36,429 bases of DNA. Origin: Acidobacteriota bacterium. Its GTDB lineage: Bacteria > Acidobacteriota > Vicinamibacteria > Vicinamibacterales > UBA2999. Location of the stretch: NCBI GenBank assembly GCA_020200025.1, contig JAIVJN010000019.1:1-36429 (forward strand), written 5' to 3'. Each line of letters opens with the position of its first letter. Within the stretch, counting starts at the first letter, position 1. Of this stretch, positions 1,462-36,429 are shown in pieces. The notes under the pieces were generated by a model. The model saw only the letters and a list, made by a program, of their open reading frames with translations. It ran no database searches and was not told the origin of the DNA. The translations under genes and the position numbers were made by a program.

Positions 1462-1537
1462 AGGCCAGTAGCTCAATTGGCAGAGCACCGGTCTCCAAAA
1501 CCGGGGGTTGGGGGTTCGATTCCCTCCTGGCCTGCCA
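1462..1537 (+). tRNA. trnW: tRNA-Trp (anticodon CCA)
   Basis: 76 nt. Acceptor stem AGGCCAG/CTGGCCT, D-arm GCTCAATTGGCAGAGC, anticodon loop CTCCAAA, T-loop GGTTCGATTCC, discriminator G and an encoded CCA end. Confidence 0.93.
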
Positions 1538-2402: not shown

Positions 2403-2828
2403 ATGGCCAAAAAAGTAACGGCAATGGTGAAGCTCCAGATCGCGGCGGGGAAGGCGACCCCCGCGCCGCCGGTCGGGACCGCGCTCGGTCCGCACGGCGT
2501 CAATATCATGGACTTCTGCAAGAACTTCAACGCCAAGACGTCGAAGGACGAGGGCCTCATCATCCCGGTCGTCGTCACCGTGTACGCGGATCGGTCCTAC
2601 ACCTTCATCACCAAGACGCCGCCGGCGTCGATTCTGCTGAAGCGCGCGGCGAACCTCGCGAAGGGATCGAACGAGCCGAACAAGAACAAGGTCGGCACGG
2701 TGACGAAGAAGCAGGTCGAGGACATCGCCAAGCTCAAGATGCCCGACCTGAACTGCGAGTCGCTGGACGCGGCGTTCAAGACAGTCGCCGGCACCGCGCG
2801 CTCGATGGGAATCGATGTTATCGGGTGA
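2403..2828 (+). CDS. rplK: 50S ribosomal protein L11
   Basis: [44 protein letters not shown], a full-length 141-aa L11 that begins 6 nt after the nusG stop. Confidence 0.97.
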
Positions 2829-2945
2829 TCGCGCGATTGGTGATCGGGCAATCGGATCGCGCGATCGGGTGATTGCCGATTGATCGCCGATCGCTCGATC
2901 GCAAGACTGAACGATCGCCCGATGGCCCGATCGCGAGATCGCCAG
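2829..2945. repeat. GATC-dense low-complexity palindromic spacer (rplK-rplA)
   Basis: Ten GATC sites (mostly CGATCG) in about 120 bp. Includes the perfect 12-nt palindrome gatcgcgcgatc flanked by caatcg/cgattg-type arms. Confidence 0.7.
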
Positions 2946-2994
2946 ATTCAGTAGGTGGGAGGCCGGACGGCCGTCTGAACCACAGGAGCAACAC

Positions 2995-3477
2995 ATGCGC
3001 AAGTCAGGAAAGAAATTCACTGCCGCCAGGCAGCAGGTGCCAGAGCGTCCGCACTCGATCGAGGATGCTGTTCCCCTCATGCAGAAAGTGAAGTACGCGA
3101 AGTTCGACGAGACCGTCGAACTCGCGCTTCGGCTGGGCGTCGATCCGAAGCACGCCGATCAGATGGTCCGCGGCACGGTGGTACTGCCCCATGGGCTCGG
3201 CAAGAGCAAGCGCGTGCTGGCGATTGTTGGCGGGGAAAAGCAGAAAGAAGCGCAGGACGCCGGCGCCGACGTGGTCGGCGGCGAGGAGGTCGTCGACAAG
3301 ATCCAGGGCGGCTGGATGGACTTTGACGCGGTCGTGGCCACGCCTGACATGATGCGCGCGGTCGGCAAGCTCGGAAAGGTGCTGGGCCCGCGCGGACTCA
3401 TGCCGAATCCGAAGACAGGCACGGTGACGTTCGACATCGGTTCGCGATTGATACGAGTCACGTCACGGATGTGGTGA
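2995..3477 (+). CDS. rplA: 50S ribosomal protein L1, internally truncated or frame-broken in this sequence
   Basis: L1-like through residue about 149 (...[17 protein letters not shown]), then [11 protein letters not shown]-stop. Roughly 65-80 expected C-terminal residues are absent. An alternative frame from 3441 reads [14 protein letters not shown]-stop (3483-3485), which resembles a genuine L1 C-terminus. Confidence 0.85.
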
Positions 3478-3490
3478 AGCACTAAGCGGA

Positions 3491-3546
3491 CTTTGGGGAT
3501 TGGGCATTGGGCTTTGGCAACGAAAGCCCGAACCGAACGCCCAAGG
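3491..3546. repeat. Imperfect hairpin related to the 1203-1290 element (rplA-rplJ spacer / rplJ leader)
   Basis: ctttggggattgggcattgggctttgg ... cgaaagcccgaaccgaacgcccaagg. The core stem is gggcttt/aaagccc. Shares ggcattgggctttgg with the post-tuf element. Confidence 0.6.
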
Positions 3547-3567
3547 CCTGACAAGGATCAGAAGAAA

Positions 3568-4095
3568 ATGCCCGTCACGAAAGCAAGCAAGGAAATCGAC
3601 CTCAAGAGCCTCGAGGACTCCTTCAAGGAGACCGACAGCGCGATCCTGGTGGATTACCGCGGCCTCAAGGTGCCCGAGGTGACCGAGCTGCGCCGGCAGG
3701 TACGGCGCGCGCGCGGGCGCTACAAGGTCGTCAAGAATACGCTGGCACGGCGCGCCCTGAAAGGCACGGCCTTCGAATCGTTGACCGAGCACTTCATCGG
3801 CACCACGGCGGTGGCGTACAGCGGCGACGACCCCGTCGCGCTCGCGAAGGTGCTGACGACGTTCGCGAAAACGACGCCGGCGCTGCAGATCAAGGCGGCG
3901 GTCGTGCAGGGCCGCGCGATCAAGACGGCGGAGGTCAGCGACCTCGCGACGCTGCCCGGCAAGCCGGAGCTTTACGCGAAGCTGCTGTTCCTGCTCCAGG
4001 CGCCCATGGTGCAGCTGGTCACCGTCCTGCACGCGGTGCCACGGGACCTGATGAACGTATTGGTGGCGGCGGAGAAGAAGAGATCTGAATCGTAG
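3568..4095 (+). CDS. rplJ: 50S ribosomal protein L10
   Basis: Met at 3568 within ORF 3493. DSAILVDYRGLKVPEVTELRRQVR...YKVVKNTLARRAL is typical L10, 175 aa. Confidence 0.93.
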   Translation: MPVTKASKEIDLKSLEDSFKETDSAILVDYRGLKVPEVTELRRQVRRARGRYKVVKNTLARRALKGTAFESLTEHFIGTTAVAYSGDDPVALAKVLTTFAKTTPALQIKAAVVQGRAIKTAEVSDLATLPGKPELYAKLLFLLQAPMVQLVTVLHAVPRDLMNVLVAAEKKRSES

Positions 4096-4186
4096 GAAAG
4101 CTGTCAGCGTTCAGCTTTCAGCTCTCAGCCAGACGAGGCCAGGGAGCGACGAGCTGACAGCTGATGGCTGATAGCTGACAGCTTTC
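4096..4186. repeat. About 90-nt imperfect hairpin of CAGCT-rich units (rplJ-rplL spacer)
   Basis: Left arm gaaagctgtcagcgttcagctttcagctctcagcc (4096-4130). The reverse complement of the right arm (4153-4186) is gaaagctgtcagctatcagccatcagctgtcagc. Confidence 0.75.
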
Positions 4187-4205
4187 AGCGTTAGGAGAGA
4201 GAGAA

Positions 4206-4350
4206 ATGGCCGAAGTGAATCAGCAGCAGGTGATCGAGTACATCAAGGGCATCTCCGTCCTCGAGCTGTCGCAGCTCGTGAAGGAGCTCGAGAAGGAGCT
4301 CGGCGTGTCGGCGGCCGCGGCGATGCCGATGGGCATGCCGATGGCACCGC
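4206..4350 (+). CDS. rplL: 50S ribosomal protein L7/L12, N-terminal dimerisation domain only
   Basis: [48 protein letters not shown] covers the NTD and the start of the hinge. The conserved C-terminal domain is absent and the frame runs out of frame into rpoB (ORF 4206..5390). Confidence 0.75.
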
Positions 4351-4362
4351 GAGGTTTCATCT

Positions 4363-8648
<4,286 letters not shown>

Positions 8649-21795: not shown

Positions 21796-22313
21796 AACGA
21801 CTTCTTCTATGGTCCTCCGCGCTGCTGTGGCTTGTGCCCACTGCCTGTGGCGGCCAAGCATCGCCAACGCAGCCGTCCGCAGCTGCAGCGCCTTCGGCGA
21901 GCGTGGTGGCCCTCGAGGGGGAAGCCGGAACCGGTGACGGAAGGATCGTCGAGCGCTCTCGGGCCTCGGGCGGACGGACAATCCACCTTGGCCCCGGTGA
22001 GCGCCGCCGCTGGACGTTTGCGGTCGGTGCCGCCGCGGCACACTACGCAGTATCGGTGACGTACTCAAACGGCAAGGAAGGGGAGAACGAAGTCATCAGC
22101 ATGAGAGTCGATGGGGTGTCCCTCAGCTCATTTCTGAATCGCGACTCGGGCGACAGCACCGAAGGCTGGAATGTCTTCGTGACGGATCCTGCAGGGACGT
22201 CGGCATTGCGCTCAGGGAGCCACACCATCGTTCTCGAGGTCAGCGGGGGAGACGGATGCGTGGAGATTGACCTGGTGACATTGACCCCCCCTGCGGCCGG
22301 CTTGGTGCCATGA
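21792..22313 (+). CDS. Putative lipoprotein with a carbohydrate-binding-module-like beta-sandwich
   Basis: MKRLLLWSSALLWLVPTAC (lipobox-like). LEGEAGTGDGRIVERSRASGGRTIHLG...YAVSVTYSNG...GSHTIVLEV resembles CBM6/35-type modules. Confidence 0.6.
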   Translation: MKRLLLWSSALLWLVPTACGGQASPTQPSAAAAPSASVVALEGEAGTGDGRIVERSRASGGRTIHLGPGERRRWTFAVGAAAAHYAVSVTYSNGKEGENEVISMRVDGVSLSSFLNRDSGDSTEGWNVFVTDPAGTSALRSGSHTIVLEVSGGDGCVEIDLVTLTPPAAGLVP

Positions 22314-23128
22314 CCCACGCGACCGATCGCTGCCGGGTGTTCCGCCAGCTCCACGCTTCTGGTTGCTTCGTGATCCCCAACCCGTGGGACGTCGGGAGTG
22401 CGCGCGTGCTTGCGCGACTGGGCTTTCCAGCGCTGGCCACGACCAGCTCCGGGTTCGCGTGGTCGCTGGGGCGTCCCGACAACCGGGTCACATTAGATGA
22501 GGCCGTGACGCACTTTCGGTCAGTCGCCGGGAGCGTCAACGTACCGGTCAACGCGGACTTCGAAAGCGGCTTTGCAACCGAGCCGGCGGCGGTCCGCGCC
22601 CACGTCACGATCGCAACCGACACCGGGATCGCCGGACTCTCGATCGAAGATTCCACGGGCGATGCCTCGAACCCGCTGTTGGACTTCACGCTCGCGGTCG
22701 AGCGAATCCGGGCGGCGCGGCGAGCGATCGACGACAGTGAAACGGGCATTCTTCTCACCGGGCGATCTGAAGGCTTCATTGTCGGACGTCCGGATCTTGT
22801 GGAAACGATTCGCCGGCTCACTGCCTACGCCGAAGCCGGGGCCGATTGTCTGTACGCGCCCGGCATTCGCGCGGCCCAGGACATCGCGGCGGTGGTCGGG
22901 GCGGTTGCCCCCAAACCTGTGAACGCACTGGTCGGGAGCGACTTCACCACGGTTGCGGAGCTTGCTGCCCTGGGGGTGCGACGGATCAGTGTTGGCGGCG
23001 CGCTGGCTCGCGCGGCGTGGACCGGTTTCCTCCAGGCTGCGACCGAAATCGCGGAGCGGGGCACGTTCACGAGTCTTGGCCTCGCCGCTCCGTTTGCCGA
23101 CGTCAACCGGCTGTTCGACTCGGAGTAA
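22310..23128 (+). CDS. Isocitrate lyase / PEP mutase superfamily enzyme
   Basis: FRQLHASGCFVIPNPWDVGSARVLARLGFPALATTSSGFAWSLGRPD, VNADFESGF, GLSIEDS. 272 aa. ATGA overlap with the upstream gene. Confidence 0.85.
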   Translation: MTHATDRCRVFRQLHASGCFVIPNPWDVGSARVLARLGFPALATTSSGFAWSLGRPDNRVTLDEAVTHFRSVAGSVNVPVNADFESGFATEPAAVRAHVTIATDTGIAGLSIEDSTGDASNPLLDFTLAVERIRAARRAIDDSETGILLTGRSEGFIVGRPDLVETIRRLTAYAEAGADCLYAPGIRAAQDIAAVVGAVAPKPVNALVGSDFTTVAELAALGVRRISVGGALARAAWTGFLQAATEIAERGTFTSLGLAAPFADVNRLFDSE

Positions 23129-26603: not shown

Positions 26604-29240
26604 ATGATTGGCCGAACCATCTCGCACTACCGCATCGAAGAAAAGCTGGGCGAAGGCGGGATGGGCGTCGTGTATCGAGCGCGGGATCTGAGCCTGATGC
26701 GCAGCGTGGCCATCAAGTTTCTTTCCTCCGACGTGACGACCGAGGAGCGGCGGCGCCGCTTCCAGCAGGAAGCGCAGACCGCATCGTCGTTGAATCACCC
26801 GCAGATCCTGTCGGTGTACGAAGCCGGAACGGAGAACGGCCAACAGTATCTGGTAACTGAGTACGTCGACGGCTTCACGCTTCGAGACTGGGCGAGCCGC
26901 GAGCGTCCATCCGAGCGGCAGATCATCGAAGTAATGATCGGCATCGCCGACGCGCTTGCGTGTGCCCATCAGGCAGGCATCATCCACCGCGACATCAAGC
27001 CGGAGAACATCCTGATTGCGCGGCAGGGGTACGCCAAACTCGCAGATTTCGGTTTGGCCAAGTTGCTGGAAGCCCAGTCCGGAGGTGCTGACGCCACGAG
27101 AACGGCCGTCGCGACGCGGGCGGGAGCCATCCTCGGGAGCGTTCCTTATATGTCGCCGGAGCAGGCGAATGGGATGCCGGTGGATGCGCGCACCGATGTG
27201 TTTTCGTTTGGGACGGTCCTGTACGAATTGTTGGCCGGTCAGCGGCCGTTCGTTGGAACTTCCGATCCCGATGTGTTGCACGCGATCCTCCATGCGCCTG
27301 CACGCCCGCTTGCGGAGGTGCGACCCGACGCACCCCACGACCTACGCCTCGCCGTTGAGAAGGCCCTCGAGAAAGATCCGGCAGACCGCTATCAGTCTAT
27401 GCGCGACCTGGTGGTGGATCTGAGGCGTGTGTTGCGGCGGAAAGCGCCCGGCGCCGTGGCTACCCCTGTCCCTCGATTGCCAAGTCGCCGACTTGGGTGG
27501 GCCATGGCAGCGGCCGCCGTTGCTCTGGTGTCGGCACTGGCGCTCTGGCAGCGCCAGCGGGGCGATGCGCAATGGCAGAACCCACTCGCCAACGCGCGGT
27601 TCGAGCGGCTGACGGATTTCGACGGTTCCGAACTGGACGCCGCGATCTCGGCTGACGGAAAGTTCGTCGTCTTCCTCTCGGACCGCGACGGGCCGTTCGA
27701 CGCCTTCGTCAGCCAGGTGGGCAGCGGCGAATTCCTCAATCTCACGAAGGGCCAGACGCCGGAGCTGCTCAATGAGATCGTCAGCAATGTCGGGTTTTCC
27801 GCTGACGGGGCCCACGTCTGGACTCGCGTCGGCGAGTTCGTTTCACCTGGAGAGCCGGTGCCTGAGCGCCTCTGGCTAACCCCCACTATGGGCGGCGCTG
27901 CTCGACTGTTCCTCGACAGCGCGGTGATGGCGGTGTGGTCGCCCGACGGAAGCAAGGTCGCCTATCATCAGCCGACGCCGGGCGATCCCATCCATATCGC
28001 CGACCGCAATGGGAGCAATCCAACACTGATTTTCGTGGACAAGCCAGGCGGTCACTGCCACTTCCTGACCTGGTCGCCCGACGCGCGGTTCCTCTATTTC
28101 GTGCGCGGCTTCCCACTCAACGAGATGGATGTCTGGCGCGTTCCCGCGACCGGCGGCGAACCGGAGCGCATCAGCCATCACAACTCGCGAGTGGCGTACC
28201 CGGTGCTTCTGAATGAACGCACGCTGATCTACATCGCCACTGCAGACGACGGCACCGGCCCGTGGCTCTACGCCATGGACCTCGAACGCAGGACGGCCCA
28301 CCGAGTGAACGTCAGCGTGGAGCAGTACATCTCCATCGCCGCCAGCGCCGAATCTCCGGGACGGCCCCGCCGCCTGGCGGCCACAGTGTCGAACCCTAGC
28401 GTCCACTTGTGGACCGTGCCCATTGCTGGAGGCATCGTCGACGAGTCCGCTGCGAGCCGCTTCGCTGTTCCCACCGCACGCTCAGCGAGCCCGCGCTTCG
28501 GCCCGGACTATCTCGTCTATCTGGCATCGCGAGGGGACAGCAACGGCCTCTGGAAATTCAAGGACGGTAGGGCGACCGAATTGTGGCGCGCCATGGACGG
28601 CGCGGTCGTCGGCGCCGCCGCAGTCTCGACCGACGGCCGGGAGGTCTGTTTCCCGGTGCGCCGTCAGGGCCGCACAACCGCGTACTGCACAACCGCCGAC
28701 GGAACGAACCCGCGGGAGCTCGCAGAGCCGGTCGACGTCCGTGGCCCGTTCTCCTGGTCGCCAGATGGCAAGTGGATCGCCATCACAGCGGGCCAGCTAG
28801 ATGGTGCCCGGTTGTTCAAGGTCCCGGTGGACGGCGGCCCTCCGGTCCGTCTAGTGGACACGTTCGCTTCGAATCCGCTGTGGTCACCGGACGGCGCGTT
28901 TATTCTCTATTCCGGATCGCAGATAGGACGGAACGTACCCGTGAAGGCGGTGACGCCTGAGGGCCAGCCCTATCCTCTTCCGGAACTCTGGGTCTACCGA
29001 ACCGGCGAGAACTACCGGTTCCTGCCGGGCGGACAGCAGCTGGTCCTCATGCAGGGTGGATTTCGCCGGCAGAACTTCTCGTTGTTCGATCTGAAGACCG
29101 GGCGCCAGAGGCAACTCACGAATCTGCAACCCGGGTCTTCGCTGCGGAGCTTCGATATCTCTGCCGACGGCAAGAGCATCCTGTTCGATCGTGTGCGGGA
29201 GAATTCGGACATCGTGCTCATCGAACTCCCCGGCCGGTAG
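26604..29240 (+). CDS. Ser/Thr protein kinase with a TM segment and an extracytoplasmic TolB-like (PD40) beta-propeller
   Basis: GEGGMGVVYRA, VAIK, HRDIKPENIL, DFGLAK and YMSPEQ, then TM WAMAAAAVALVSALALW, then repeated WSPDG/FSADG/ISADG PD40 motifs. Confidence 0.9.
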   Translation: MIGRTISHYRIEEKLGEGGMGVVYRARDLSLMRSVAIKFLSSDVTTEERRRRFQQEAQTASSLNHPQILSVYEAGTENGQQYLVTEYVDGFTLRDWASRERPSERQIIEVMIGIADALACAHQAGIIHRDIKPENILIARQGYAKLADFGLAKLLEAQSGGADATRTAVATRAGAILGSVPYMSPEQANGMPVDARTDVFSFGTVLYELLAGQRPFVGTSDPDVLHAILHAPARPLAEVRPDAPHDLRLAVEKALEKDPADRYQSMRDLVVDLRRVLRRKAPGAVATPVPRLPSRRLGWAMAAAAVALVSALALWQRQRGDAQWQNPLANARFERLTDFDGSELDAAISADGKFVVFLSDRDGPFDAFVSQVGSGEFLNLTKGQTPELLNEIVSNVGFSADGAHVWTRVGEFVSPGEPVPERLWLTPTMGGAARLFLDSAVMAVWSPDGSKVAYHQPTPGDPIHIADRNGSNPTLIFVDKPGGHCHFLTWSPDARFLYFVRGFPLNEMDVWRVPATGGEPERISHHNSRVAYPVLLNERTLIYIATADDGTGPWLYAMDLERRTAHRVNVSVEQYISIAASAESPGRPRRLAATVSNPSVHLWTVPIAGGIVDESAASRFAVPTARSASPRFGPDYLVYLASRGDSNGLWKFKDGRATELWRAMDGAVVGAAAVSTDGREVCFPVRRQGRTTAYCTTADGTNPRELAEPVDVRGPFSWSPDGKWIAITAGQLDGARLFKVPVDGGPPVRLVDTFASNPLWSPDGAFILYSGSQIGRNVPVKAVTPEGQPYPLPELWVYRTGENYRFLPGGQQLVLMQGGFRRQNFSLFDLKTGRQRQLTNLQPGSSLRSFDISADGKSILFDRVRENSDIVLIELPGR

Positions 29241-29766: not shown

Positions 29767-31068
29767 ATGAGAGTCTTCCTCACACTTCTTCTCGTGTTAC
29801 TCGCCCTCGTGCCTCAGGCCGGCGGCCAAGAGGCCCGGCGCCGATGGGAGATGCAACGGCAGATTCGCCTGGACAAGTTCGAGCAGATACTGCCGCAGGC
29901 CATGCGAACCCATGGCATCGACATGTGGGTCGTCGCGGTCAAAGAAAACCGTCGCGACCCGCTATGGGAGGACCTGGGCCGCGGGTATGTCTCGGGCATC
30001 GGCTATTACGTCTTCACCGACCGCGGGCGAGACCGGATCGAGCGTGCGGCGCTCGGGCCGAGCGGCTATCTCGTGGAGCAGTCCGGCGCCTATGACATCT
30101 TCGGCCCGGCCTCGACACTCGCCGCGTTCGTCAAGGAACGGAATCCACGACGCATTGGCGTCAACATCTCCGACGAGATTGGGCCCGCTGACGGCCTCTC
30201 CCAGACCATGTATCAGCATCTGGTGAGATCGCTGGGCGAGCCGTACGCCTCGCGACTGGTGAGCGCCGAGCGTTTGGTGAGCGAGTTCCGTTCGCGACGG
30301 GTCGCGTCTGAGATCGTGGCCTTCGGTGAGGCGGCCGGCATCGCGATCCAGCTTGCGGAGCGCGCGTTGTCAAACGAGGTCATCACGCCTGGCAGGACCA
30401 CCCTCGAGGACGTGGCGTGGTGGCTACAGGATCGCCTCCTCGAGCGCGGCCTCGGTTCTGAATTCGACATGCCATCCGTCTACATCACCGGTTCCGACGG
30501 AATCGTCGCCACTTCCACGGCTCGCACCATCCGGCCGGGCGACGTCGTCATGATCGACTGGGGTGTGCAGCTCATGAACTTCGGCACTGACGTCAAGCGC
30601 GTCGCATACGTGTTGAAGCCAGGTGAGCTCGAGCCGACCAAGAGCATCCAGGTCGCGTTCGACAAGGCGATCGCCGTACGCGACGTGCTGAAGAAGGTCA
30701 TCAAGCCCGGCATCCGCGCCGACCTGACCATGAAGGCCATGGATGCCGCGTTGCGTGCGGCCGGCTACGGGGTCATCGAGTTCAACCGGCCAAACAGCGA
30801 TGACAAGACTGACGTCGTGTACGGCTTCCACCCCGTCGGCAATACGGGGCATGACATCGGACCGTCGATGACGACGTGGCAGCCCCTGCAGAGCACGTTC
30901 GAACTGTATCGGCAGCACATCTTCTCGTTCGAGTATTTCGCCTATACGCCGATACCCGAATGGGGCGGAAAGAAGTTGCGGATTCCTATCGAAGACGACG
31001 CGATACTGATGGAGCACGGGATTCAGTTCCTCCACTCGGCGAACTACAGGCTGCTTGTCGTCAGGTAA
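29767..31068 (+). CDS. M24-family metallopeptidase (Xaa-Pro aminopeptidase/creatinase-like), secreted
   Basis: Signal peptide MRVFLTLLLVLLALVPQAGG, a creatinase/prolidase N-domain, and the pita-bread region GDVVMIDWGVQLMNFGTDVKRV...GHDIGP. Confidence 0.8.
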   Translation: MRVFLTLLLVLLALVPQAGGQEARRRWEMQRQIRLDKFEQILPQAMRTHGIDMWVVAVKENRRDPLWEDLGRGYVSGIGYYVFTDRGRDRIERAALGPSGYLVEQSGAYDIFGPASTLAAFVKERNPRRIGVNISDEIGPADGLSQTMYQHLVRSLGEPYASRLVSAERLVSEFRSRRVASEIVAFGEAAGIAIQLAERALSNEVITPGRTTLEDVAWWLQDRLLERGLGSEFDMPSVYITGSDGIVATSTARTIRPGDVVMIDWGVQLMNFGTDVKRVAYVLKPGELEPTKSIQVAFDKAIAVRDVLKKVIKPGIRADLTMKAMDAALRAAGYGVIEFNRPNSDDKTDVVYGFHPVGNTGHDIGPSMTTWQPLQSTFELYRQHIFSFEYFAYTPIPEWGGKKLRIPIEDDAILMEHGIQFLHSANYRLLVVR

Positions 31069-31090
31069 AGGACCGAAGAGAGCTTTAACC

Positions 31091-32014
31091 ATGTCTGTTG
31101 TTCTCCTCGCTCTCGCGCTCCTGCTGGTCAGCCCCGCTCTCCGTGCACAGCAGGTCACCATTCCCGAGACCGTTCGCGCCGCGGCCGATCGGATCACCGC
31201 CGACCAGCTCGCGCAGGATCTGGAGTACCTCGCCTCCGATGCGCTCCTGGGCCGAAATACACCGTCGCCAGGCTTCGACACGGCGGCAGAGTACATCGCA
31301 AAACGACTCGAGCGGGCGGGTGTGAAGCCGCTCGGGGACAGTTCCACCTTCTTCCAGCATTACGTCATGCGCGAGTCGCACGTCGACACCGCGGCCGCAT
31401 ATCTCGAAATCGGCGAAGTCAAATTCCACTTCGGCGACCACTTCGTCATTCGCTCGTTTGCCGGCCCGATAACCGGGGCGCTGCCGGTCGTGTACGTGGG
31501 GCACGGGTGGACGGTGGCGGGACGGGACATCGATCCGTATGCGGGCGTGGATGTCAAAGGGAAGGTCGTGCTGGCGCACGGACCGCGCGCGCTGCCCAAA
31601 GGAGTCGAGATCCGGCAGATCGGCGGGATCAACGTCGGTGCGAATACGGCGTTCGCCGAAGCAGCGCGGCGCGGAGCCGCGGGCATCATCTTCATTCCTC
31701 AGACCAGCGCTCTGCAGAATTGGACGCAGATGCAGGGGCAGAACACGGTCGTGCGAGCGCTCGAGCCGCCCGTGCCCTCCGCGTACGCCGCGCCGCCGGT
31801 CACTTCCGTGCTGCTCGTGCAGAAGGCAACAGACGCGCTTCTCGCCGGCGAGCGTGTGGAAGGCGCGGAGATGGTGGCACGTGGCGATCGCCAGGATTAC
31901 CCGCTATCGTTTCAGCTCAAGAAGACGGTAACCCTGCACCTTCCGGTCGGATCGACCACCGATCACCGCCCCTACAACGTCGTGGGTCTGATGGAAGGGA
32001 GCGACCCGTCCTGA
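31091..32014 (+). CDS. M28-family peptidase with PA domain, N-terminal segment
   Basis: Signal peptide MSVVLLALALLLVSPALRAQ. LASDALLGRNTPSPGFDTAAEYIAKRLERAG, PA-domain DVKGKVVL, and NVVGLMEGSDP followed by a premature TGA at 32012. Confidence 0.85.
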   Translation: MSVVLLALALLLVSPALRAQQVTIPETVRAAADRITADQLAQDLEYLASDALLGRNTPSPGFDTAAEYIAKRLERAGVKPLGDSSTFFQHYVMRESHVDTAAAYLEIGEVKFHFGDHFVIRSFAGPITGALPVVYVGHGWTVAGRDIDPYAGVDVKGKVVLAHGPRALPKGVEIRQIGGINVGANTAFAEAARRGAAGIIFIPQTSALQNWTQMQGQNTVVRALEPPVPSAYAAPPVTSVLLVQKATDALLAGERVEGAEMVARGDRQDYPLSFQLKKTVTLHLPVGSTTDHRPYNVVGLMEGSDPS

Positions 32015-32715
32015 AGAGCGAATACATCACGATCGAATCGCACCTGGACGGAGCCGTCGGCACGCGTACGGCTGACGGCGACGACGTGTACAACTCCGCC
32101 GACGACAATGCCTCCGGCAGCTCGGCGAACCTGGCCATTGCCGAGCGGATGATGACCGGGCCCCGGCCGAAGCGGTCCGTGATCTTCATCTGGGACAGCG
32201 GTGAGGAACGGGGCCTGTGGGGAACCCGCTATTTCGTCCATCGGCCGCCCGTGCCGCTCGAGAAGATAGTGGCGCACGTCAACATCGACATGATCGGGGC
32301 GAGCCGCGCACCGGGCTCTCCTGATGTCGAGGCTGCTGGTGCCACCGGACCGAATGAGGTCTACCTCATCGGCCCCGGTGTGCTGAGCGCGCAGACTGAC
32401 GCGCTCCTGGAACGGACGAATCGCGAGTATCTGAATCTTCGCTTCAACCGTGACCACGATCGCGCCGACAGCGAGTTCTTCTATCCCCGCACCGACGCGG
32501 GGCCATTCCTCGAGCGGGGTATCCTGACCATCGGATTCACCACTGGCATCCACGCTCGTTACCATGCGCCGTCGGACGAAGCGCGGCATCTCGACGCCAA
32601 GAAGATGGAAGCCATTGCCCGGACGGTGTTTATGGTGGTCTGGATGCTCGCCGACTCTACCGAACGCCCGCGCATCGACCGGAGCATCCCGCCCACAGTG
32701 CTTCGATACCAGTAG
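32008..32715 (+). CDS. M28-family peptidase, C-terminal catalytic segment (shifted frame)
   Basis: VLKSEYITIESHLD...NSADDNASGSSANLAIAE...IFIWDSGEERGLWGTRYF...NIDMIG...YHAPSDE carries the M28 zinc ligands. It continues segment 1 after a 1-nt shift at about 32008. Confidence 0.85.
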   Translation, partial: VLKSEYITIESHLDGAVGTRTADGDDVYNSADDNASGSSANLAIAERMMTGPRPKRSVIFIWDSGEERGLWGTRYFVHRPPVPLEKIVAHVNIDMIGASRAPGSPDVEAAGATGPNEVYLIGPGVLSAQTDALLERTNREYLNLRFNRDHDRADSEFFYPRTDAGPFLERGILTIGFTTGIHARYHAPSDEARHLDAKKMEAIARTVFMVVWMLADSTERPRIDRSIPPTVLRYQ

Positions 32716-33569: not shown

Positions 33570-34373
33570 CTACTCGGCCAACCAGCGCGCGACGACTCTG
33601 CTCGTCGGTCGGGATGGCCGCGGCGGCACGTACAGAGTCATCGCCGGCAACACCTGCTTGTGCGGCAGCCTTTCGAGTATCGTCCGCTCGATGGTCGGGT
33701 CACAGATAGGGAATTGCGCCGCTTCGTACAAGATGACGGGGTGCCGGCCCGGGTAGTGACGTCGAAGCACCTGGGTCAGCACGCGCAGACGCTCAGGGCG
33801 GCATGACATACCTTCCCGGACACTCGCTTCACCGAGAAGTCCCACTTGCCACAGAATCAACGCGCTCCCGGGATCGAAGCGCCGCCGCGCCGCCAGAAAA
33901 TCCGTGGCCTCGAAACTCTGCCACCCTCGTCCCGTCGAGCTCACGCTGATATCGGCAAATAGACAGTCTTCGGCGGACACGCCCGGCAGCATCCGGGCGG
34001 CAAACCCCTCGCGGCGTGCCGTCGTCAAGGCTTCGCGTGACGGTTGCACCAGCACGCCCGGATGACCGTAGAACGCGGCGCAGACCTGCAGACCTCCTCT
34101 GACCGATTTCAGGATCCGATCCGCGATTTCGGCGTAGGTGTCGTGCCGCGGGCGGCCATCCGAGTAACTGTTCTCGAGACTTTCCGCCGATGGATTGAGC
34201 TCACGAAGCCACTCGGCAACCGCTGGATTCGGGACCAGGTAGAACAGCTTTTCAGCCCGCTGAATGTACTCCAGCGCCTCGACCGTGATCTGCCTGACGA
34301 GTGTGATGCCGGTGCCCACGATGATGAGCGAGCCGCGGCGTGCGGCACCGGCCACGTGTCGAGTCGGGTTCAT
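33570..34373 (-). CDS. Stand-alone borosin-type alpha-N-methyltransferase (tetrapyrrole-methylase fold, OphMA/SonM-like)
   Basis: GSLIIVGTGITLVRQITVEALEYIQRAEKLFYLV, RPRHDTYAEI, AAFYGHPGV, ARMLPGVSAEDCLFADI, ILWQVGLLG and TLYVPPRP align block for block with the OphMA methyltransferase domain as I recall it (GSLTIAGSGI..., KKRYESY, FYGHPGVF, MLPGVSAEDYMFADL, IIWQVGSVG, TFYVPPR). No fused core peptide. Confidence 0.85.
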   Translation of the reverse strand: MNPTRHVAGAARRGSLIIVGTGITLVRQITVEALEYIQRAEKLFYLVPNPAVAEWLRELNPSAESLENSYSDGRPRHDTYAEIADRILKSVRGGLQVCAAFYGHPGVLVQPSREALTTARREGFAARMLPGVSAEDCLFADISVSSTGRGWQSFEATDFLAARRRFDPGSALILWQVGLLGEASVREGMSCRPERLRVLTQVLRRHYPGRHPVILYEAAQFPICDPTIERTILERLPHKQVLPAMTLYVPPRPSRPTSRVVARWLAE

Positions 34374-34702
34374 CAGTTCTTCTTGCGCGCGGGCTTCGAT
34401 GGCTTCTTCGGTCCCGGTCTCCCCGGTTTGCCCGGCTTGGCGGGTTTCCCCGGCTTGCCGGGTTTCGGCCTGCTGCGAGGGGGCCGCGGCGGACCCTCGA
34501 AGGAGGACTCGCCGACCGAGAGGCCGCTGGCGTGCATCAGGCGGAGGAGTCGCCGAGAATCGCGGGAGATCACGGCAGCCCGTTCCTCCTCGGTGAGCCC
34601 GGCGCGCGTCACCTCCTCTTCCGGGTTCGCCTCGAACTGAGCGAGGCGGACTGGGTATCTGACGACGTCGCGCAAGAAACTGAACAGGGGCCTGTCGATC
34701 AT
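34373..34702 (-). CDS. Candidate split-borosin precursor peptide: SonA-like helical N-domain plus Pro/Lys/Gly-rich cationic tail
   Basis: GGAGGAGG lies 4 nt upstream of ATG 34702. The stop overlaps the methyltransferase start (ATGA). The N-domain FSFLRDVVRYPVRLAQFEANPEEEVTRAGLTEEERAAVISRDSRRLLRL resembles the SonA/LigA-like helical bundle. The tail is GPPRPPRSRPKPGKPGKPAKPGKPGRPGPKKPSKPARKKN. Confidence 0.75.
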   Translation of the reverse strand: MIDRPLFSFLRDVVRYPVRLAQFEANPEEEVTRAGLTEEERAAVISRDSRRLLRLMHASGLSVGESSFEGPPRPPRSRPKPGKPGKPAKPGKPGRPGPKKPSKPARKKN

Positions 34703-34770
34703 CGCGCCTCCTCCGGCCGCAGGGTCACGGCCGATCGCAGCTTTGCCTGTCTCGGAAAACGGATGATACC

Positions 34771-36429
34771 TTACTGCGTCACGCCCAGCGCCGCAAGCAG
34801 CGGGGCGTAACGCGGATCGGTGCGCAGGTTGTCAAAGAACGGGTCGACCGTCAGGTACCCAAGCCACGGATCGCGAAGTGACCGCGCGCGTTCGAGCCAG
34901 TCGAATGCCCGATCGTTGTCACGCAGGCAGGAGTACACGAGTGCGATCCCAACTGGTCCTCCCTCCTGCGTTTTTCGATAGCGATCGATCAATTCGTCGG
35001 CCGTTTTCTGCGCTTCAGGCTGCCGGTCTGCCATGGCAAGCGCGCAACCCAGGAAGGCCTGCAGTTCCGCGGTGCGGCCCCGGATGGTTGCAGCCTTCTC
35101 GATGGTTTCCAGAGCCCGCGCGTCCTCGCGCTTCTGAGCGTACGCCTCCGCCACGAACAGTTGTGCCCTTACGAATGTGGGATCGAGTTGCAGCGCCTTC
35201 TGCGCGCGTTCGATGGTCTCGTCATAGCGCCGCGAGAGAAAGAGGACGGCCGCCGCCTGGGTGTGCACGCTCGCAGACAACGGGTCGAGCTCCAGGGCCT
35301 TCTGAATCGCGGACGTCGCGTCCGCGAAGCGCCCGCGCTGCGCCAAGTGAGCCGCACGCCAGTGATAAGCCCGCGCGTAACCCGGATTCAGATCCAGAGC
35401 ACGTTTGAAGCTGCCCTCCGCGGCGTCCCACTCGAGACGGTTGTGCTGCACGAGACCGAGCGACGCATGGGCCTCGGCCAGCGACTCATCGAGCGCGATC
35501 GCTTTCGTCGCTGCCGTGCTCGCCCGCGCGAGGGATTCTCCGTACGGCATCGTCCCGAGCGCACCGAGGAGCACATATGCGTCCGCTAACCCGGCGTAGG
35601 CGGACGCATAACCGGGATCGCGATCGATGGCCTTCTGAAAGTACTCGACGCTTCGATTCAGACCGTCCGTGGTGCGGAGGTTCCAGTAATAGCGGCCGCG
35701 CAGATATAGATCGAACGCTTCGAAATCCTGAGGCTGGCCGTTGTCGCCTCCAGCCCGCGCGAGCACGCCTTGTTGTTGCCGTGACAATCGCAAATGGATC
35801 CCGTCCACGACCGCCTTGGCGACCTGACTCTGAAGGGCCAGCACATCGTCGACCACGGTCTCGAATGTGCGATCCCAGAGTTGCGTGTCGGTGCCTGCGG
35901 CGATCAGACGTGCATTGATACGGACCCTTTTGGTTGCCGCAGGAGCCGCCGGGAGTACCAGCACGGATCCTTCGAGAACGGCGTCCACGCCGAGTGTCCT
36001 CGCGATCTCCGGCAGCGATCTGGACGAACGCTTGAACGTCATGATCGAGGTGCGCGAAATCACGGCGAGACCGGGTAATCGTCCAAGCCTCGCGATGAGC
36101 TCCTCGGTCATGCCGTCGGCGAAGTACTCCTGCGACGGATCGCCCGATAGGTTGACGAGCGGGAGGACGGCAACCGAGTGGATAACACCGGGGACGGACG
36201 TACGGGGAGGGCTGCCGTTGAACGTTGTCCAGAAGAAGGCCGCGAGCGCCCCGATGACTGCGAGTATGGCCGCGATCGCGCTGCGTTGCCACGTAATGAA
36301 CTTACCTCCCGGCGCGGGCGTCGAGACTGTTTCCTGGGCTCGGAGCGCCGCGGCATCCTCGAGTGCCCGCACGAGATCGGCCTCCAGCTCCCCAACGCTG
36401 CCGTACCGCTGTACAGCGTCGGTCGAAAT
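34771..36429 (-). CDS. Ser/Thr kinase-associated sensor protein (end of kinase domain, TM, TolB-N-like module, TPR repeats); 5' end beyond window
   Basis: The frame is open to the window edge (ISTDAVQRYGSVGELEADLVRALED is the kinase C-lobe end). Then TM AIAAILAVIGALAAFFW, VAVLPLVNLSGDPSQEYFADGMTEELI, and multiple TPRs (AIDRDPGYASAYAGLADAY, ALDLNPGYARAYHW...). Confidence 0.85.
   Translation of the reverse strand: MSTDAVQRYGSVGELEADLVRALEDAAALRAQETVSTPAPGGKFITWQRSAIAAILAVIGALAAFFWTTFNGSPPRTSVPGVIHSVAVLPLVNLSGDPSQEYFADGMTEELIARLGRLPGLAVISRTSIMTFKRSSRSLPEIARTLGVDAVLEGSVLVLPAAPAATKRVRINARLIAAGTDTQLWDRTFETVVDDVLALQSQVAKAVVDGIHLRLSRQQQGVLARAGGDNGQPQDFEAFDLYLRGRYYWNLRTTDGLNRSVEYFQKAIDRDPGYASAYAGLADAYVLLGALGTMPYGESLARASTAATKAIALDESLAEAHASLGLVQHNRLEWDAAEGSFKRALDLNPGYARAYHWRAAHLAQRGRFADATSAIQKALELDPLSASVHTQAAAVLFLSRRYDETIERAQKALQLDPTFVRAQLFVAEAYAQKREDARALETIEKAATIRGRTAELQAFLGCALAMADRQPEAQKTADELIDRYRKTQEGGPVGIALVYSCLRDNDRAFDWLERARSLRDPWLGYLTVDPFFDNLRTDPRYAPLLAALGVTQ

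Follow-up and report, generated by a model that had tools for sequence, protein, structure and literature searches.

At one end of a 36,429-nt contig from an Acidobacteriota bacterium (JAIVJN010000019.1; this whole stretch is referred to as the window), two adjacent minus-strand genes encode a stand-alone methyltransferase and, directly upstream of it, a small protein whose N-terminal half resembles SonA, the precursor of the Shewanella SonM/SonA borosin system. We are largely confident that the best explanation for this pair is a SonM/SonA-like split borosin module of type IV, in which the predicted alpha-N-methyltransferase would modify the backbone of the separately encoded precursor. A first-pass annotation of the locus had proposed the same coupling of a stand-alone alpha-N-methyltransferase to a SonA-like precursor, and each element of that proposal that could be tested has held, beginning with the two open reading frames (ORFs) themselves, which lie at the coordinates and on the strand that it gave. 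The locus contains the following features, where BBD denotes the borosin-binding domain, AF2 denotes AlphaFold2, pLDDT is its predicted local distance difference test score and TM denotes transmembrane:

33570..34373, minus strand: predicted alpha-N-methyltransferase, with a TP_methylase fold and a SonM-type active site (Y70, R76, Y80, Y102, E155, W175, Q176)
34373..34702, minus strand: precursor protein of 109 aa, whose TGA stop and the methyltransferase ATG have one base in common
34529..34690, minus strand: predicted BBD, precursor residues 5-58, assigned from profile, hhalign and AF2 fold
34493..34528, minus strand: candidate core SGLSVGESSFEG, precursor residues 59-70, placed by its position relative to the BBD, as in SonA
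34376..34492, minus strand: disordered polybasic Pro/Gly/Lys-rich tail, precursor residues 71-109, recognised from its composition and an AF2 pLDDT of about 50
34771..36429, minus strand: Ser/Thr kinase-TM-TPR sensor gene, of which the contig end leaves the 3′ two-thirds

The 267-aa methyltransferase (MCA1559468.1) and the 109-aa precursor (MCA1559467.1) meet at a TGATG junction, in which the precursor stop and the methyltransferase start have a single base in common at coordinate 34373. A stop/start overlap had been predicted for this position and is present, but not in the 4-nt ATGA form that had been described. The strong Shine-Dalgarno sequence expected before the precursor is also found, as GGAGGAGG lies at 34707-34714 on the minus strand, 4 nt 5′ of the precursor ATG, and AAGGAGG-type ribosome-binding sites occupy the equivalent position in homologous loci. 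The GC content at third codon positions (GC3) is 0.83 in both the helical half and the tail half of the precursor ORF, and ranges from 0.74 to 0.81 in the neighbouring genes. In addition, small homologous ORFs preceded by an AAGGAGG-type ribosome-binding site stand directly upstream of every related methyltransferase. The neighbour-like GC3 and the conservation of these homologous small ORFs indicate that the precursor ORF is more than a chance reading frame, and a spurious small ORF in GC-rich DNA is ruled out by the GC3, the conserved ribosome-binding sites and the more than 120 homologous clusters described below.

All of the motifs on which the borosin assignment of the enzyme had originally been based are present in the methyltransferase (GSLIIVGTGI, R76-x3-Y80, AFYGHPGV, LPGVSAEDCLFAD, WQVG and LYVPPRP), and the protein does lack a C-terminal core of its own, ending about 10-14 residues past the methylase domain. 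Pfam places the enzyme in the general TP_methylase family only (E=2.7e-18). In a phmmer search against solved structures, SonM and dbOphMA are matched at E=3.6e-56, OphMA at about 3e-54 and MroMA at 7e-42, with no significant match other than to borosin methyltransferases. A pairwise alignment that covers SonM residues 2-243 gives 42% identity to SonM. The roles of the SonM active-site and lock residues have been established (PMC8429565), and SonM Y58, R67, Y71, Y93, E146, W166 and Q167 correspond to Y70, R76, Y80, Y102, E155, W175 and Q176 in our enzyme, all of which are identical. Across the loci with polybasic precursors the active-site residues are invariant, except that the Y58 equivalent is Phe in a sub-branch of loci L006 and L023-L026. 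Consistently, the AF2 model of the enzyme (mean pLDDT 86.7) has SonM as its best Foldseek match (E=8e-30, TM-score 0.84), and the top 50 Foldseek matches are all borosin methyltransferases. The NCBIfam models for CobA, CysG, CobI, CobJ and YabN score the enzyme at 14-41 bits against cut-offs of 163-525, and those for CobA, CysG and the precorrin methylases at 14-24 bits against cut-offs of 163-400, so that a comparison with the tetrapyrrole families, proposed as a check on the original claim, leaves these models far below their cut-offs and borosin enzymes as the only significant structure matches. Taken together, the sequence and the predicted structure identify the enzyme as a borosin alpha-N-methyltransferase, of predicted activity. 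A further contig of 4985 bp (L003, JAIVJE010000186.1) carries the same methyltransferase apart from E67G (window numbering), followed by identical downstream genes; this near-identity indicates that the same population was assembled twice, with L003 as a contig of a second metagenome-assembled genome.

The N-terminal half of the precursor is, by family profile and structural model, a BBD, and the resemblance to SonA that had been noted by eye for this region is borne out by three approaches. A database search with the single precursor sequence returned 3 proteins, and a profile was used for the wider family, built from 19 aligned small ORFs sited directly upstream of related methyltransferases. 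This profile matches SonA at E=1.6e-8, with profile positions 4-62 aligned to SonA residues 3-59, LigA at E=3.3e-5 and the clasp region of OphMA at E=0.016. The comparison by hhalign with a reconstructed SonA sequence, in which the first two residues are assumed, gives a probability of 97% and E=1.2e-10. The AF2 model of the precursor, made from an alignment with 36 family members, has a pLDDT of about 90 over residues 10-55 and predicts five BBD helices (residues 5-15, 17-25, 27-33, 38-46 and 49-58), with no structure beyond residue 60. The SonA BBD chains are the top Foldseek matches of this model (TMt 0.86, root-mean-square deviation 1.1 Å over 50 columns), at E-values of 0.6-2 that are weak because the domain is only about 55 residues long. 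No signal peptide was found in the precursor. Wherever a related locus holds enough sequence, the ORF immediately upstream of the methyltransferase gene contains a BBD, and the gene pair, whose conservation had been named as a further check, is kept in every such locus examined. As a separate observation, residues 8-38 of the precursor (34589-34681) weakly match the NCBIfam model of the IniB N-terminal domain (19 bits where the cut-off is 40, E=7e-4), and mycobacterial IniB likewise has a short helical N-terminus followed by a long low-complexity tail. The IniB N-terminal domain may be a distant relation of the BBD/LigA fold.

Beyond the BBD, the precursor contains a short candidate core and then a tail of unusual composition. 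The stretch LMHASGLSVGESSFEG had been put forward as the likely modified segment at 34496-34540; the residues concerned (55-70) extend one codon beyond this and span 34493-34540. SonA is methylated at L63 and I65, in a phi-x-phi pattern about 10 residues past its BBD (PMC8429565). By analogy with SonA, we infer that L61 and V63 of our precursor are the N-methylation sites. The tail, PPRPPRSRPKPGKPGKPAKPGKPGRPGPKKPSKPARKKN (residues 71-109), is encoded in part by a 9/18-bp tandem repeat that specifies KPG units, and the last 40 residues of the protein (70-109) are 35% Pro, lack acidic residues altogether and bring the net charge of this stretch to about +15. This basic character is general, since Lys and Arg together make up 35-53% of the tails of all 19 neighbouring precursors.

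To place the precursor in a wider family, the profile was searched against 1.84 billion cluster representatives (50%-identity clusters). The search recovered 1,817 BBD proteins with a cut-off of E<=1e-3, and 187 when this was tightened to E<=1e-10. A polybasic tail is present in 124 of the 150 best related 50%-identity clusters. The composition of the tail is conserved across more than 120 clusters and its sequence is not, and the tail in the window is unusually rich in Pro (35%, against a family median of 7.5%). Between the BBD and the tail sit short motifs that are specific to subfamilies. The window precursor and six other cluster representatives (seven in total) have the motif sG-[LFYM]-[SA]-[VLI]-G in common, and other subfamilies hold ADH[ML]TQ or GFRLQSF at the same position. 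The polybasic-tail precursors thus form a large soil family, of whose size and coherence we found no description. The same representative search also recovered multi-BBD architectures that are unrelated to the window, with three BBD-like segments in a protein of 276 aa (P0168) and twelve in one of 2816 aa (P0205).

The methyltransferases that are paired with polybasic precursors also belong together, as they form one branch in a neighbour-joining tree of 40 methyltransferase sequences that was drawn with no support values. The enzymes of this branch share a top-clamp motif, GExSVRxxxxCR(P)ER, and have net charges of +3 to +11. For most of the remaining borosin methyltransferases in the set the range is -12 to +4, and only the enzyme of L022, for which no precursor was identified, also reaches +10. 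The partners of enzymes that are at most about 52% identical to the query are short precursors whose C-termini are hydrophobic cores, for example ...PPGCVVFS and ...HMNFIVL.

Upstream of the precursor, at a distance of 68 nt as had been reported, lies an ORF that runs without a stop codon to the contig end at 36429. Within the window it codes for the last part of a kinase C-lobe, a single TM helix and a juxtamembrane domain, as well as TPR repeats and a TPR_END_plus domain. Its earlier description as a kinase-TPR gene is therefore directly visible for the TM helix and the TPRs, but the kinase domain lies beyond the contig end and the label is right by orthology only. L001 encodes a full-length kinase-TPR protein of 866 aa, which has a Pkinase domain (E=2.7e-42) followed by TPRs, and residues 374-866 of this protein share 57% identity with the ORF. 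An orthologue of this gene lies directly upstream, on the same strand, in 17 of the 17 polybasic loci that reach upstream of the precursor (L001, L002, L004-L006, L016, L017, L019, L021, L023-L026, L030, L034, L037 and L041; L018 and L020 end too soon). A kinase-TPR gene is also found in L049, where the precursor has no polybasic tail, and in L022, where no precursor ORF was identified. L022, a soil metagenome contig, carries two tandem borosin methyltransferase genes (637-1401 and 1458-2186) 3′ of a kinase-TPR remnant.

The conserved neighbourhood extends one gene further, to a position that for the window lies past the contig end. All eight loci that reach far enough (L001, L002, L004, L005, L023, L024, L037 and L041) contain a gene for an extracytoplasmic function (ECF) sigma factor that overlaps the kinase start, is 75-82% identical among loci and is accompanied by no anti-sigma factor; its best NCBIfam match falls below the cut-off of that model, leaving the ECF group unassigned. 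The conserved order is ECF sigma factor, Ser/Thr kinase-TM-TPR, precursor and methyltransferase, and downstream of the methyltransferase nothing is conserved beyond close relatives. A known class of regulators consists of ECF sigma factors whose partners are Ser/Thr kinases in place of anti-sigma factors (PMC7826278). The ECF sigma/kinase-TPR context of the pair is fixed, and we found no description of it. Approximately 40-70 nt upstream of the ECF sigma start in L001 (at about 395-440), L002, L004, L023, L037 and L041 there is a conserved promoter-like element, CTTCAAAC-N17-TATGATAC, which resembles a sigma-70 promoter more than an ECF type. Outside the polybasic loci, the position of the kinase-TPR gene is held by a TPR-GGDEF gene in L015 (Alteromonadaceae, 2405-4168) and by an adenylate/guanylate cyclase-NB-ARC-TPR gene in L008 (Ardenticatenaceae, 2547-5537). 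Together with the son cluster of Shewanella and the Acidobacteria loci, these cases indicate that a TPR-bearing signalling partner recurs and that the type of output enzyme is swapped.

These results are consistent with a simple mechanism for the type IV module. The precursor and the methyltransferase would be translationally coupled through the TGATG overlap. The five-helix BBD would dock on the methyltransferase, by homology with the SonM-SonA crystal complexes, and docking would feed approximately residues 59-70, most likely the phi-x-phi motif L61-S62-V63, into the active site, where transfer of methyl groups from S-adenosylmethionine to the backbone amide nitrogens of the fed segment is predicted. 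The C-terminal 39 residues would trail behind as a disordered polycationic follower, and the main target of methylation probably lies elsewhere. The pair itself would be the distal half of the conserved four-gene unit, and, given the conserved linkage to the ECF sigma factor and the kinase, its expression is probably tied to that signalling pair.

Several observations weigh against this interpretation. The window precursor alone falls below the Pfam LigA gathering score (22.2 against 25.3 bits, E=1.6e-4) and matches the SonA chains only at E of about 1; because the single sequence is borderline, the BBD assignment draws its support from the profile of the family and from the modelled fold. An ungapped alignment with SonA puts the methylated positions on E65 and S67, which are not hydrophobic residues, and the stretch that follows the BBD exceeds characterised cores in polarity; G-L-S-V-G sits where the SonA core sits but in a polar region, followed by an atypical polybasic tail. 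In addition, a scan for the sigma-70 consensus found neither a sigma-70-like promoter nor a convincing terminator around the pair, and the operon is inferred from spacing alone. A TTGCnn-N17-TAnnnT element does overlap the kinase stop codon in several loci, where it is not distinguishable from coding constraint.

An alternative that we regard as unlikely is that the end product is the intact or nearly intact small protein, methylated on its backbone and tethered by its tail to a polyanion, for which nucleic acid, polyphosphate or an anionic membrane would be candidates, and that it acts intracellularly, either as an output of the ECF sigma/kinase circuit or as a modulator of it. Such a product would fit a module that conserves no protease or exporter, a precursor that has no signal peptide and a tail that is conserved in composition over more than 120 clusters and not in sequence. 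The net basic charge of the methyltransferases of this group (+3 to +11) points the same way, although proteome composition could explain the shift in charge. Moreover, the type IV cluster of Shewanella is also without a protease and nevertheless yields an excised 16-mer. The M24 and M28 peptidase genes in the window were considered as a possible cluster protease or exporter and were rejected, as they are convergent, downstream and not conserved in other loci.

It seems very unlikely that the polybasic tail is itself the core, with multiple methylations on Lys, Gly, Ala and Arg amides as in types VI-VIII, yielding a protease-resistant polycationic peptide. Up to 32 consecutive methylations have been found on long repetitive split-borosin cores (bioRxiv 10.1101/2021.12.24.474128), repeats or compositional enrichment at the C-terminus are frequent in borosin cores (bioRxiv 10.1101/2024.01.09.574750), and the tail is predicted to be disordered and accessible. 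However, position i of SonM lies in a large hydrophobic pocket (PMC8429565), characterised cores are hydrophobic or acidic and never polybasic, and Pro, a residue that lacks an amide proton, makes up 35% of the last 40 residues. It is also the short hydrophobic motifs beside the BBD that are conserved, and not the sequence of the tail. Finally, the idea of an ordinary tetrapyrrole (CobA/CysG/precorrin) or YabN/RsmI-type methylase beside an unrelated or spurious ORF or a LigA subunit, which could appeal to the general Pfam family of the enzyme, the automatic annotation of homologues as 'precorrin-3B methylase', 'siroheme synthase' or 'YabN' and the LigA match of the small ORF in Pfam, is effectively refuted, as a tetrapyrrole, YabN or rRNA methylase is ruled out by the curated NCBIfam cut-offs and the solved-structure matches, a LigA dioxygenase subunit by a neighbourhood with no LigB-like ORF and a profile that prefers SonA, and a spurious ORF by the conservation and coding-type GC3 noted above.

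The type IV reading leaves room for a more far-reaching proposal, namely that polybasic precursors, their own branch of methyltransferases and the invariably linked ECF sigma/kinase-TPR genes together define a distinct and widespread soil borosin subtype, whose backbone-methylated polycationic product is functionally coupled to the sensor. We consider this quite unlikely as it stands. One option within it is that the peptide could be a ligand of the extracytoplasmic TPR domain of the kinase, closing an autoinduction loop in analogy to the proteobacterial TPR-GGDEF partners, and another is that the peptide could be a cationic effector induced by envelope stress. The locus brings nothing new to borosin enzymology, and its importance is that it represents a large soil family whose precursors keep a polycationic tail and whose gene pairs are firmly linked to an ECF sigma factor and a TPR-bearing Ser/Thr kinase. 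Proteobacterial borosins are known to associate with TPR-GGDEF proteins, and membrane signalling enzymes with TPRs as recurrent neighbours suggest a testable route to the function of bacterial borosins, in signalling or an envelope-stress response rather than as classical antibiotics. A backbone-methylated polycationic peptide, if true, would be a new chemotype for peptide engineering.

Other features of the window lie outside the four-gene unit. Two overlapping ORFs in different frames, at 31055-32014 and 31507-32715 on the plus strand, encode a signal-peptide-like N-terminus (the first) and a Peptidase_M28 domain (the second, E=6e-29), and the two probably represent a single gene for a secreted M28 peptidase that was split by a frameshift or by faulty assembly. 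The sister contig L003 is identical here. Just upstream, an M24 peptidase is encoded (29767-31068, plus strand). A second Ser/Thr kinase, at 26604-29240 on the plus strand (Pkinase E=3.7e-50), has PD40 (TolB-like beta-propeller) repeats in place of TPRs, and the contig is rich in membrane kinases. A PEP_mutase-family protein is encoded at 22310-23128 (plus strand, E=1.7e-73), and the sole Rfam match in the entire window is a tRNA gene at 1462-1534 (plus strand).

Eleven borosin types (0-X) are now recognised (PMC11395268). Type IV, the commonest with 746 members, comprises split borosins with a stand-alone methyltransferase and a BBD-fused precursor (bioRxiv 10.1101/2021.12.24.474128), and our locus, judged from sequence and models, is of this type, with the stand-alone borosin-type enzyme, its active-site residues, the adjacent BBD-bearing precursor and the conserved pairing all present. 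The first-pass annotation had taken such a pair to be uncharacterised in an Acidobacteria-like genome or with a precursor of this composition. Its claim of novelty is overstated, because this exact pair and other Acidobacteria pairs are already among the borosins predicted by RODEO. That dataset lists MCA1559467.1 under 'Acidobacteriota bacterium' at 34702-34372, with MCA1559468.1 as its partner, a score of 23 and the validity mark 'Y', and its other Acidobacteria entries include the L002 precursor OLC43585.1 (bioRxiv 10.1101/2024.01.09.574750). The pair is thus an already catalogued predicted borosin, and only the polybasic-tail subfamily and the ECF sigma/kinase-TPR link appear to be undescribed. 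The main borosin texts consulted make no mention of Acidobacteria, basic tails or kinases, within a scope that leaves out Cho et al. 2022 (Biochemistry 61:183), where a prior mention is possible.

Comparison with known systems places the locus more precisely. The BBD is a distant homologue of the helical domain of LigA, the alpha subunit of the protocatechuate 4,5-dioxygenase LigAB (PF07746), and SonA itself is deposited as a 'LigA domain-containing protein'. Unlike LigAB, our locus has no LigB partner, its context is a borosin methyltransferase and its profile fits SonA better. The kinase-regulated ECF sigma factors (ECF43, ECF59-62, ECF217/267/283 and the VP0055 group of V. parahaemolyticus) likewise show an ECF gene overlapping a downstream kinase in orthologous loci, and we found in the literature no reported link between such sigma factors and a pair of genes for a peptide that is made on the ribosome and modified after translation.

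Among borosins, the fungal fused enzymes of types I-II (OphMA, dbOphMA and MroMA) agree with our enzyme in methyltransferase fold and in catalytic residues (E=1e-54 to 1e-42), but carry the BBD and the core fused to the enzyme C-terminus and methylate their dimer partner, whereas the precursor here is a separate gene product. Types V-VIII and X (RceM/A, SliM/A and AinM/A) likewise act in trans, and repetitive or biased precursor C-termini are common among them. In types V-VIII, however, the BBD is fused to the enzyme and the repeat cores are acidic or hydrophobic, whereas here the BBD is on the precursor, and in type X the enzyme is fused to TM-TPR-GGDEF proteins, whereas here it stands alone.

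The closest counterpart is SonM/SonA of Shewanella oneidensis MR-1 (PDB 7LTC and 7LTE, among others), the source of shewanellamide A, the one bacterial borosin product reported in the literature consulted, which has been described as the first borosin product from bacteria (PMC10549244). Its methyltransferase, of about 265 aa, likewise stands alone and has the same active-site residues, and the adjacent gene encodes a separate precursor in which an N-terminal five-helix BBD precedes the core, as it precedes the candidate core here. The son cluster is likewise without a protease or other modifying enzyme, and beside the pair it holds just an efflux pump and a GGDEF signalling enzyme with TPRs. 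GGDEF proteins are present in 56% of split borosin clusters. Such proteins are predicted to display a periplasmic TPR domain (bioRxiv 10.1101/2021.12.24.474128). In contrast to the 71-aa SonA, our precursor has 109 aa, and a 39-residue polycationic Pro/Gly/Lys tail replaces ...YLVISHGNGD. In contrast to SonM, our enzyme is net basic with the group-specific top-clamp GExSVRxxxxCR, and the host is an Acidobacteriota and not a gammaproteobacterium. Where son has a TPR-GGDEF gene and a cation efflux pump, the neighbours here are a Ser/Thr kinase-TPR protein and, as judged from orthologous loci, an ECF sigma factor.

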